Below, in pieces: positions 43,203-47,810 of a stretch of 64,000 bases of DNA. The DNA lies in assembly GCF_003334335.1 (NCBI RefSeq), contig NZ_QOWQ01000030.1. One strand, given 5' to 3'. Source of the stretch: Escherichia coli (lineage in GTDB: Bacteria > Pseudomonadota > Gammaproteobacteria > Enterobacterales > Enterobacteriaceae). Made by a program: the position numbers and the translations under genes. Numbering within the stretch: the first letter of the stretch is position 1; each line of letters starts with the position of its first letter. Below the pieces are notes generated by a model. It searched no databases. It was given only the letters and a program-made list of their open reading frames with translations, and was not told the origin of the DNA.

Positions 43203-43487
43203 ATGAGTAAATGTAGTGCTGATGAAACCCCGGTTTGCTGCTGTATGGATGTTGGCACCATTATGGACAACTCCGACTGCACCGCGTCTTACAGCCGCGT
43301 GTTTGCAAACCGCGCAGAAGCAGAGCAAACGCTGGCGGCGCTGACTGAAAAAGCCCGTAGCGTGGAATCTGAACCTTGCAAAATCACCCCGACTTTCACT
43401 GAAGAGTCTGACGGTGTGCGCCTGGATATCGATTTCACTTTTGCCTGCGAAGCTGAAATGCTGATTTTCCAGCTGGGTCTGCGTTAA
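43203..43487 (+). CDS. yfcZ: UPF0381-family small protein YfcZ
   Basis: ORF 43179..43487 trimmed to the ATG at 43203 (MSKCSADETPVCCCMDVGTIMDN...), 94 aa. Confidence 0.75.
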   Translation: MSKCSADETPVCCCMDVGTIMDNSDCTASYSRVFANRAEAEQTLAALTEKARSVESEPCKITPTFTEESDGVRLDIDFTFACEAEMLIFQLGLR

Positions 43488-43503: not shown

Positions 43504-43541
43504 ACGCCCCTGTCAGTTGCTGGCAGGGGCGTTTTCTTTTC
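43504..43541 (+). terminator. Rho-independent terminator after yfcZ
   Basis: acgcccctgtcag-ttgc-tggcaggggcgt stem-loop followed by ttttcttttc. Confidence 0.65.
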
Positions 43542-43623
43542 TCTTCTTCTTTTCTCTCTGTGTCATAGCTCCCACTTTCCCTTTTCTCCACTTGGCTAAA
43601 TGTAAAAAAATGGTTAAGACTAT

Positions 43624-43640
43624 GATCAGGTCAGACCACT
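43624..43640. promoter_or_regulatory. FadR operator upstream of fadIJ
   Basis: gatcaggtcagaccact contains the caggtc-a-gacc FadR-type core; ends 28 bp before the fadI ATG. Confidence 0.6.
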
Positions 43641-43667
43641 TTATTTATTTTTTTACAGGGGAGTGTT

Positions 43668-44978
43668 ATGGGTCAGGTTTTACCGCTGGTTACCCGCCAG
43701 GGCGATCGTATCGCCATTGTTAGCGGTTTACGTACGCCTTTTGCCCGTCAGGCGACGGCTTTTCATGGCATTCCCGCGGTTGATTTAGGGAAGATGGTGG
43801 TAGGCGAACTGCTGGCACGCAGCGAGATCCCCGCCGAAGTGATTGAACAACTGGTCTTTGGTCAGGTCGTACAAATGCCTGAAGCCCCCAACATTGCGCG
43901 TGAAATTGTTCTCGGTACGGGAATGAATGTACATACCGATGCTTACAGCGTCAGCCGCGCTTGCGCTACCAGTTTCCAGGCAGTTGCAAACGTCGCAGAA
44001 AGCCTGATGGCGGGAACTATTCGAGCGGGGATTGCCGGTGGGGCAGATTCCTCTTCGGTATTGCCAATTGGCGTCAGTAAAAAACTGGCGCGCGTGCTGG
44101 TTGATGTCAACAAAGCTCGTACCATGAGCCAGCGACTGAAACTCTTCTCTCGCCTGCGTTTGCGCGACTTAATGCCCGTACCACCTGCGGTAGCAGAATA
44201 TTCTACCGGCTTGCGGATGGGCGACACCGCAGAGCAAATGGCGAAAACCTACGGCATCACCCGAGAACAGCAAGATGCATTAGCGCACCGTTCGCATCAG
44301 CGTGCCGCTCAGGCATGGTCAGACGGAAAACTCAAAGAAGAGGTGATGACTGCCTTTATCCCTCCTTATAAACAACCGCTTGTCGAAGACAACAATATTC
44401 GCGGTAATTCCTCGCTTGCCGATTACGCAAAGCTGCGCCCGGCGTTTGATCGCAAACACGGAACGGTAACGGCGGCAAACAGTACGCCGCTGACCGATGG
44501 CGCGGCAGCGGTGATCCTGATGACTGAATCCCGGGCGAAAGAATTAGGGCTGGTGCCGCTGGGGTATCTGCGCAGCTACGCATTTACTGCGATTGATGTC
44601 TGGCAGGACATGTTGCTCGGTCCAGCCTGGTCAACACCGCTGGCGCTGGAGCGTGCCGGTTTGACGATGAGCGATCTGACATTGATCGATATGCACGAAG
44701 CCTTTGCAGCTCAGACGCTGGCGAATATTCAGTTGCTGGGTAGTGAACGTTTTGCTCGTGAAGCACTGGGGCGTGCACATGCCACTGGCGAAGTGGACGA
44801 TAGCAAATTTAACGTGCTTGGCGGTTCGATTGCTTACGGGCATCCCTTCGCGGCGACCGGCGCGCGGATGATTACCCAGACATTGCATGAACTTCGCCGT
44901 CGCGGCGGTGGATTTGGTTTAGTTACCGCCTGTGCTGCCGGTGGGCTTGGCGCGGCAATGGTTCTGGAGGCGGAATAA
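43668..44978 (+). CDS. fadI: 3-ketoacyl-CoA thiolase FadI (anaerobic beta-oxidation)
   Basis: 436-aa ORF; thiolase fold with an active-site cysteine region ([12 protein letters not shown]). Confidence 0.92.
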
Positions 44979-47122
44979 TGGAAATGACATCAGCGTTTAC
45001 CCTTAATGTTCGTCTGGACAACATTGCCGTTATCACCATCGACGTACCGGGTGAGAAAATGAATACCCTGAAGGCGGAGTTTGCCTCGCAGGTGCGCGCC
45101 ATTATTAAGCAACTCCGTGAAAACAAAGAGTTGCGAGGCGTGGTGTTTGTCTCCGCTAAACCGGACAACTTCATTGCTGGCGCAGACATCAACATGATCG
45201 GCAACTGCAAAACGGCGCAAGAAGCGGAAGCTCTGGCGCGGCAGGGCCAACAGTTGATGGCGGAGATTCATGCTTTGCCCATTCAGGTTATCGCGGCTAT
45301 TCATGGCGCTTGCCTGGGTGGTGGGCTGGAGTTGGCGCTGGCGTGCCACGGTCGCGTTTGTACTGACGATCCTAAAACGGTGCTCGGTTTGCCTGAAGTA
45401 CAACTTGGATTGTTACCCGGTTCAGGCGGCACCCAGCGTTTACCGCGTCTGATAGGCGTCAGCACAGCATTAGAGATGATCCTCACCGGAAAACAACTTC
45501 GGGCGAAACAGGCATTAAAGCTGGGGCTGGTGGATGACGTTGTTCCGCACTCCATTCTGCTGGAAGCCGCTGTTGAGCTGGCAAAGAAGGAGCGCCCATC
45601 TTCCCGCCCTCTACCTGTACGCGAGCGTATTCTGGCGGGGCCGTTAGGTCGTGCGCTGCTGTTCAAAATGGTCGGCAAGAAAACAGAACACAAAACTCAA
45701 GGCAATTATCCGGCGACAGAACGCATCCTGGAGGTTGTTGAAACGGGATTAGCGCAGGGCACCAGCAGCGGTTATGACGCCGAAGCTCGGGCGTTTGGCG
45801 AACTGGCGATGACGCCACAATCGCAGGCGCTGCGTAGTATCTTTTTTGCCAGTACGGACGTGAAGAAAGATCCCGGCAGTGATGCGCCGCCTGCGCCATT
45901 AAACAGCGTGGGGATTTTAGGTGGTGGCTTGATGGGCGGCGGTATTGCTTATGTCACTGCTTGTAAAGCGGGGATTCCGGTCAGAATTAAAGATATCAAC
46001 CCGCAGGGCATAAATCATGCGCTGAAGTACAGTTGGGATCAGCTGGAGGGCAAAGTTCGCCGTCGTCATCTCAAAGCCAGCGAACGTGACAAACAGCTGG
46101 CATTAATCTCCGGAACGACGGACTATCGCGGCTTTGCCCATCGCGATCTGATTATTGAAGCGGTGTTTGAAAATCTCGAATTGAAACAACAGATGGTGGC
46201 GGAAGTTGAGCAAAATTGCGCCGCTCATACCATCTTTGCTTCGAATACGTCATCTTTACCGATTGGTGATATCGCCGCTCACGCCACGCGACCTGAGCAA
46301 GTTATCGGCCTGCATTTCTTCAGTCCGGTGGAAAAAATGCCGCTGGTGGAGATTATTCCTCATGCGGGGACATCGGCGCAAACCATCGCTACCACAGTAA
46401 AACTGGCGAAAAAACAGGGTAAAACGCCAATTGTCGTGCGTGACAAAGCCGGTTTTTACGTCAATCGCATCTTAGCGCCTTACATTAATGAAGCTATCCG
46501 CATGTTGACCCAAGGTGAACGGGTAGAGCACATTGATGCCGCGCTAGTGAAATTTGGTTTTCCGGTAGGCCCAATCCAACTTTTGGATGAGGTAGGAATC
46601 GACACCGGGACTAAAATTATTCCTGTACTGGAAGCCGCTTATGGAGAACGTTTTAGCGCGCCTGCAAATGTTGTTTCTTCAATTTTGAACGACGATCGCA
46701 AAGGCAGAAAAAATGGCCGGGGTTTCTATCTTTATGGTCAGAAAGGGCGTAAAAGCAAAAAACAGGTCGATCCCGCCATTTACCCGCTGATTGGCACACA
46801 AGGGCAGGGGCGAATCTCCGCACCGCAGGTTGCTGAACGGTGTGTGATGTTGATGCTGAATGAAGCAGTACGTTGTGTTGATGAGCAGGTTATCCGTAGC
46901 GTGCGTGACGGGGATATTGGCGCGGTATTTGGCATTGGTTTTCCGCCATTTCTCGGTGGACCGTTCCGCTATATCGATTCTCTCGGCGCGGGCGAAGTGG
47001 TTGCAATAATGCAACGACTTGCCACGCAGTATGGTTCCCGTTTTACCCCTTGCGAGCGTTTGGTCGAGATGGGCGCGCGTGGGGAAAGTTTTTGGAAAAC
47101 AACTGCAACTGACCTGCAATAA
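44978..47122 (+). CDS. fadJ: Fatty-acid oxidation complex alpha subunit FadJ (enoyl-CoA hydratase / 3-hydroxyacyl-CoA dehydrogenase)
   Basis: 714-aa ORF with an N-terminal crotonase domain and C-terminal NAD-binding 3-HCDH domains; start overlaps the fadI stop. Confidence 0.92.
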
Positions 47123-47324: not shown

Positions 47325-47810
47325 ATGCAAGTTTTTATCATGCGTCACGGCGACGCAGCCCTCGATGCCGCCAGTGATTCCGTTCGTCCTCTGACCACTA
47401 ATGGTTGTGACGAATCTCGCCTGATGGCGAACTGGCTGAAAGGTCAAAAAGTGGAAATCGAACGCGTTCTGGTGAGCCCGTTCCTGCGAGCCGAGCAAAC
47501 ACTGGAAGAAGTAGGGGATTGTCTGAACCTGCCTTCCAGTGCAGAAGTTCTGCCGGAGTTAACGCCCTGCGGCGATGTTGGTCTGGTCAGTGCCTATTTG
47601 CAGGCGTTGACCAATGAAGGTGTTGCTTCGGTACTGGTGATCTCTCACTTACCGTTAGTCGGGTATCTGGTTGCCGAGTTATGTCCGGGCGAAACGCCGC
47701 CTATGTTTACCACCTCGGCCATTGCCAGCGTAACGCTTGATGAAAGCGGAAACGGCACATTCAACTGGCAGATGAGCCCGTGTAATCTGAAGATGGCAAA
47801 AGCTATCTGA
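47325..47810 (+). CDS. sixA: Phosphohistidine phosphatase SixA
   Basis: 161-aa ORF; N-terminus MQVFIMRHGDA carries the RHG motif of the histidine phosphatase superfamily. Confidence 0.9.
   Translation: MQVFIMRHGDAALDAASDSVRPLTTNGCDESRLMANWLKGQKVEIERVLVSPFLRAEQTLEEVGDCLNLPSSAEVLPELTPCGDVGLVSAYLQALTNEGVASVLVISHLPLVGYLVAELCPGETPPMFTTSAIASVTLDESGNGTFNWQMSPCNLKMAKAI

Follow-up and report, generated by a model that had tools for sequence, protein, structure and literature searches.

The 17 bp at positions 43625-43641 of the window (the whole stretch of 64,000 nucleotides of Escherichia coli DNA analysed here) are very probably the only FadR operator in the sigma-70 promoter of fadIJ in E. coli K-12, where FadR would act by the mechanism outlined below. 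This reading is based on a motif match, a placement on the transcription start site (TSS) and selection on the site, all of which were observed here, together with the FadR dependence of the operon, which is taken from the literature. According to a 2022 review (PMC9329746), whose statements on fadIJ refer to Campbell et al. 2003 and Snell et al., long-chain fatty acids induce the operon in dependence on FadR, which represses it directly. The same review lists the FadR sites of fadL, fadE, fadBA and fadIJ as overlapping the TSS, with Campbell et al. 2003 cited for fadIJ, and comparative-genomics papers assign fadIJ and fadL to the FadR regulon in Shewanella and the Vibrionales as well.

A preliminary description of this DNA had placed the operator at 43624-43640. 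The string gatcaggtcagaccact is indeed present there, and the 28 nt between its end and the fadI start codon, as given in that description, agree with an ATG at 43668. The register, however, was off by 1 nt. We set it by alignment to validated FadR sites, for instance that of fadBA, ATCTGGTACGACCAGAT, and the 17-bp FadR register then lies one base to the right at 43625-43641, where it reads ATCAGGTCAGACCACTT (minus strand, AAGTGGTCTGACCTGAT). The resulting candidate is the imperfect dyad AGGTC-A-GACCA, with a left half-site that has A for the consensus T at position 4 in all species compared. As to the identification of a FadR operator in the fadIJ promoter, the matrix scan, the published TSS, the conservation across Enterobacterales and the literature are all in agreement with it. 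A full-text literature search with the site sequence caggtcagaccac returned no paper, and a search for FadR ChIP-exo data covering fadI returned nothing relevant.

Over the 1.2 kb around the fadI site the identity to E. coli K-12 MG1655 is 100%, and this stretch was found in every complete E. coli genome searched (5,426/5,426). Gene coordinates were obtained from the open reading frames of the window and from the RefSeq annotation of MG1655, whose identical sequence was mapped onto it. The annotated genes are fadL on the minus strand (41491-42831) and, on the plus strand, yfcZ (43203-43487), fadI (43668-44978), fadJ (44978-47122, its start codon overlapping the fadI stop) and sixA (47325-47810); the boundaries of fadI and fadJ come from both sources, and the regulated operon fadI-fadJ spans 43668-47122. 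A strong intrinsic terminator with a 13-pair stem, 9 GC pairs and a T-run lies after yfcZ at 43504-43532 on the plus strand, and is predicted to insulate the fadIJ promoter from yfcZ transcription. The fadL operators are thus separated from the fadI operator by an unrelated gene, yfcZ, and its terminator. The preliminary description had spoken of convergent and divergent fatty-acid genes co-regulated across about 1 kb, which does not correspond to this layout: fadL (minus) and yfcZ-fadI-fadJ (plus) are divergent, none is convergent, and the fadL and fadI operators are only about 0.67-0.7 kb apart. It was right in assigning the site to a FadR-regulated fadIJ operon, but its label of anaerobic beta-oxidation operon is contested by the 2022 review, which points out that ArcA represses fadIJ under anaerobic conditions as it does fadBA, and doubts a specifically anaerobic role (PMC9329746).

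The matrix scan, proposed in the preliminary description as a check, was performed on both strands of the approximately 64,000 window positions with a matrix of 7 EMSA-validated FadR sites (fadL1, fadL2, fadD1, fadD2, fadBA, fabA and fabB; probe table of PMC4259882). Three of the 7 training sites lie inside the window, namely fadL1 (42941-42957, minus strand), fadL2 (42917-42933, minus strand) and fabB (62449-62465, plus strand). The fadI candidate was the best non-training match in the 64 kb with 14.3-14.4 bits, and its 14.4 bits fall inside the range of leave-one-out scores of the validated sites (6.8-17.4 bits). It scores below fabA, fabB and fadL1 in the 7-site matrix, the highest-scoring match in the window being the validated fabB activator site GGCTGATCGGACTTGTT, about 19 kb from the fadI operator. 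When the matrix was made from only the four sites outside the window, the fadI candidate ranked second of the approximately 64,000 positions, above the validated fadL1. In Markov-1 random sequence, about 0.5-0.6 such matches are expected by chance in every 64 kb. Taken by itself, the motif score is therefore only weak evidence and is not significant at the scale of the window, because the training set is small; it is position and conservation, rather than score, that decide for the fadI operator. The next-best match of the scan was a FadR-like 17-mer of 13.4 bits, TGCTGGTCGGACGTTAA, at 30182-30198 near the 3' end of yfdP in the CPS-53 prophage. Lying inside the coding sequence of a prophage gene, it was set aside as a probable chance match.

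In the genome-wide TSS table of Kim et al. 2012 (PMC3415461, supplementary file 2), the TSS of fadI is an A at 43628 on the plus strand, which gives a 5' UTR of 40 nt. It corresponds to position 2458531 of NC_000913, minus strand, where the upstream sequence ends in ...GACTATGATCA; although it was reported from only 3 reads (PMC3415461), it agrees with a conserved -35/-10 block. The fadI operator spans -3 to +14 around this TSS and is centred at +6. The site had been described as occluding the fadIJ promoter, and a repressor position is what we find; what it covers, rather than the -35 and -10 hexamers, is the TSS and the early transcribed region. We placed the promoter from the published TSS and from conservation. 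The probable -10 element is AAGACT (43616-43621, plus strand, -12 to -7), as judged from the TSS and from the block GTTAAGACT, which is near-invariant between species, with TAAGAC (43615-43620, plus strand) as a possible alternative register. The probable -35 element, judged from the TSS, is TTGGCT (43592-43597, plus strand, -36 to -31), with an 18-nt spacer to AAGACT; it is conserved in almost every Enterobacteriaceae locus, at a constant distance from the operator. We rejected TATGAT (43621-43626) as -10, given that the A at its second position is only about 20% conserved and that this hexamer would imply a TSS about 5-7 nt farther downstream than the one mapped. A scan for strict sigma-70 consensus upstream of fadI reported no promoter, and the fadIJ promoter, having been missed by it, is therefore weak.

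Two further elements lie upstream of the operator. A direct repeat TGTAA-N6-GGTTA at 43601-43616, conserved and with an 11-bp period, is positioned between the -35 and -10 elements and overlaps the spacer and the -10. It resembles the ArcA-P box, and we presume it to be an ArcA-box-like element, which would fit the reported ArcA repression of fadIJ. Farther upstream, the CRP-like sequence TGTGT-N6-TCCCA (43559-43574) occupies a class I position, with its centre at -61.5, and its TGTG and TC.CA columns are conserved across Enterobacterales; it may be the CRP site of fadIJ and would fit the reported activation by CRP. The 2022 review describes a CRP site in the fadIJ promoter and lists the operon as activated by CRP and repressed by ArcA (PMC9329746); the main text of Li et al. 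2019, which it cites for the CRP site, does not contain fadI.

In order to assess conservation, one genome per species was scanned, which gave 80 fadI loci with FadI identities of 78-98%, 78 of them with upstream sequence; the taxa range from Escherichia to Serratia, Yersinia, Photorhabdus, Rahnella, Hafnia and Pantoea. All 78 of these other Enterobacterales species have one, and only one, copy of the core AGGTCnGACC upstream of fadI, whereas the chance expectation is about 0.0017 per 220 nt. In each of the 78 loci this element is also the best matrix match in the 200 nt upstream of fadI, with a median of 14.4 bits compared to a median of 3.1 bits for the control (within-locus means over five coding-sequence windows). 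Operator positions 4-8, 10-13 and 16 do not vary among the 78 species, while all four bases occur at position 9, the central position that is N in the FadR motif, and the remaining variation is confined to the consensus-degenerate positions 1-3, 14, 15 and 17. When 72 distinct upstream sequences were aligned with MAFFT, identity to E. coli was 0.96 for the operator and 0.60 for other upstream sequence. The bases that specify FadR binding are thus exactly those under strong purifying selection in the fadI operator. Within E. coli, identity over an 83-nt stretch that includes promoter and operator does not fall below 95% in any genome matched. The spacing between the operator and the TTGGCT...GTTAAGACT block is fixed and free of gaps, whereas the ATG is anywhere from 31 to 174 nt away, which speaks for a function at the level of the promoter and against one in translation. 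In L023, L049, L030 (Buttiauxella) and L071 (Photorhabdus), 81-174 nt separate the operator from the fadI ATG downstream of it, compared to 31-65 nt elsewhere; the 5' UTR there has apparently become longer by insertion downstream of the operator.

These data also bear on the other readings of the site. That 43625-43641 merely resembles the FadR consensus without having a function would seem compatible with the roughly 0.5 matches of this score per 64 kb of random sequence and with the comparable match in yfdP; the presence of the core in 78/78 species at an identity of 0.96 against an intergenic 0.60, the placement exactly on the TSS and the documented FadR regulation of the operon (PMC9329746) speak against it, and because of the conservation data we consider a chance resemblance so unlikely that it can practically be disregarded. 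It could also be proposed that the conserved block acts as RNA, either as 5'-UTR structure or as an sRNA target affecting the translation or stability of fadI, since operator positions +1 to +14 are transcribed and the E. coli site is just 27 nt upstream of the start codon. However, the fold of the 5' UTR is no better than those of shuffled controls (z = -0.58), the variable distance of 31-174 nt to the ATG stands against a fixed distance to the -10 and -35, and what is conserved is a dyad in DNA whose central base is free to vary, as in FadR sites. The Rfam search returned no match, its sole sub-threshold hit, to Spot 42, being a chance one at the yfcZ terminator. By the folding z-score and the Rfam result we reject a function of the operator block at the RNA level, which we regard as highly improbable.

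PdhR, the pyruvate-sensing regulator, belongs to the FadR subfamily of GntR proteins and recognises dyads of the TGGTnnnACCA type, and 43625-43641 might be a PdhR operator in addition to, or instead of, a FadR operator. The 17-mer shares 10 of 14 positions with the PdhR box AATTGGTnnnACCAATT, compared to 11-13 of 14 at the strong targets of the Genomic SELEX study of Anzai et al. 2020 (PMC7660256). That study found a peak in the yfcZ-fadI spacer, and its fadI probe was shifted as a smear; the site it assigned, CAGCGGTAAAACCTGAC at 43673-43689 on the minus strand, lies in the fadI coding sequence and matches the box at only 7 of 14 positions. Against PdhR, the core is common to both regulators, but the conserved flanks ATC...CTT suit FadR sites and not the AATT/AATT arms of the PdhR box. 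PdhR was moreover reported as an activator of fadIJ (PMC7660256), whereas -3 to +14 is the position of a repressor; the resolution of the SELEX data is too coarse to put the peak on 43625-43641, and the FadR dependence of fadIJ is documented independently (PMC9329746). A PdhR operator at this position is on the whole improbable. We would propose only very tentatively, as a rather doubtful arrangement, that the fadI operator is shared by the acyl-CoA-sensing FadR and the pyruvate-sensing PdhR, with the SELEX peak corresponding to 43625-43641 and not to the site in the coding sequence. If this were true, fatty-acid and pyruvate signals would be integrated at fadIJ on a single dyad, for which the two regulators would compete or on which they would replace each other.

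The FadR operator of fadIJ can be compared to other sites of the same regulator. One is that of fadBA, the highest-affinity fad operator, a 17-bp dyad that is identical to the fadI site at 12 of 17 positions and that is likewise a single site overlapping the TSS of its promoter and acting in repression. It is a near-perfect palindrome (TGGT...ACCA), whereas the fadI site has AGGT in its left half, a departure that is kept in 78/78 species. At fadL, whose TSS is at 42932 on the minus strand (Kim et al. 2012, PMC3415461), there are two sites on the minus strand, both exact matches to EMSA probes of PMC4259882: site 1, AGCTGGTCCGACCTATA, at 42941-42957 (-25 to -9 of the fadL TSS) and site 2, CACTGGTCTGATTTCTA, at 42917-42933 (-1 to +16). 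Site 2 has approximately the same placement as the fadI operator, under the same regulator and in the same locus. The two fadL sites are in tandem with an 8-bp gap (PMC3460868) and are validated by footprint and EMSA, whereas fadIJ has one site, predicted here from sequence, position and conservation. The sites of fabA and fabB are bound by the same protein and belong to the same 17-bp motif family, but they are located at about -40, are activating and have TGATC (versus TGGTC) as left half, while the fadI site is on the TSS and repressing.

Site 1 of fadL is centred at -43 of a distal yfcZ TSS, which was mapped with 10 reads to 42992 on the plus strand (Kim et al. 2012, PMC3415461). This is the activation geometry of FadR at fabA and fabB, and FadR might both repress fadL and activate the divergent yfcZ promoter from one site. 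We found no report in the literature of FadR activating yfcZ from the fadL site.

With regard to mechanism, we infer for the fadI site a steric block that is released by ligand. A dimer of FadR, a winged-helix protein of the GntR family, would occupy the imperfect dyad AGGTC-N-GACCA from -3 to +14 and sterically prevent RNA polymerase from forming the open complex or from escaping the promoter. Once long-chain fatty acids have been taken up and activated, the resulting long-chain acyl-CoA would bind FadR and take it off the DNA. The release of FadR would then derepress fadIJ, and the same signal would derepress fadL, at a distance of 0.7 kb, together with the other members of the fad regulon.

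Repression of fadIJ by FadR is already known and is textbook biology of the fad regulon. The preliminary description recognised a known operator correctly in the bare sequence, but was slightly wrong about its register and about the orientation of the genes. What is added here is the computational confirmation that the operator sits on the TSS, which has little significance beyond annotation. The operator is part of a fadIJ promoter module, consisting of the CRP-like site, the -35, the ArcA-like repeats, the -10 and the FadR operator, that is conserved as a whole across Enterobacterales.
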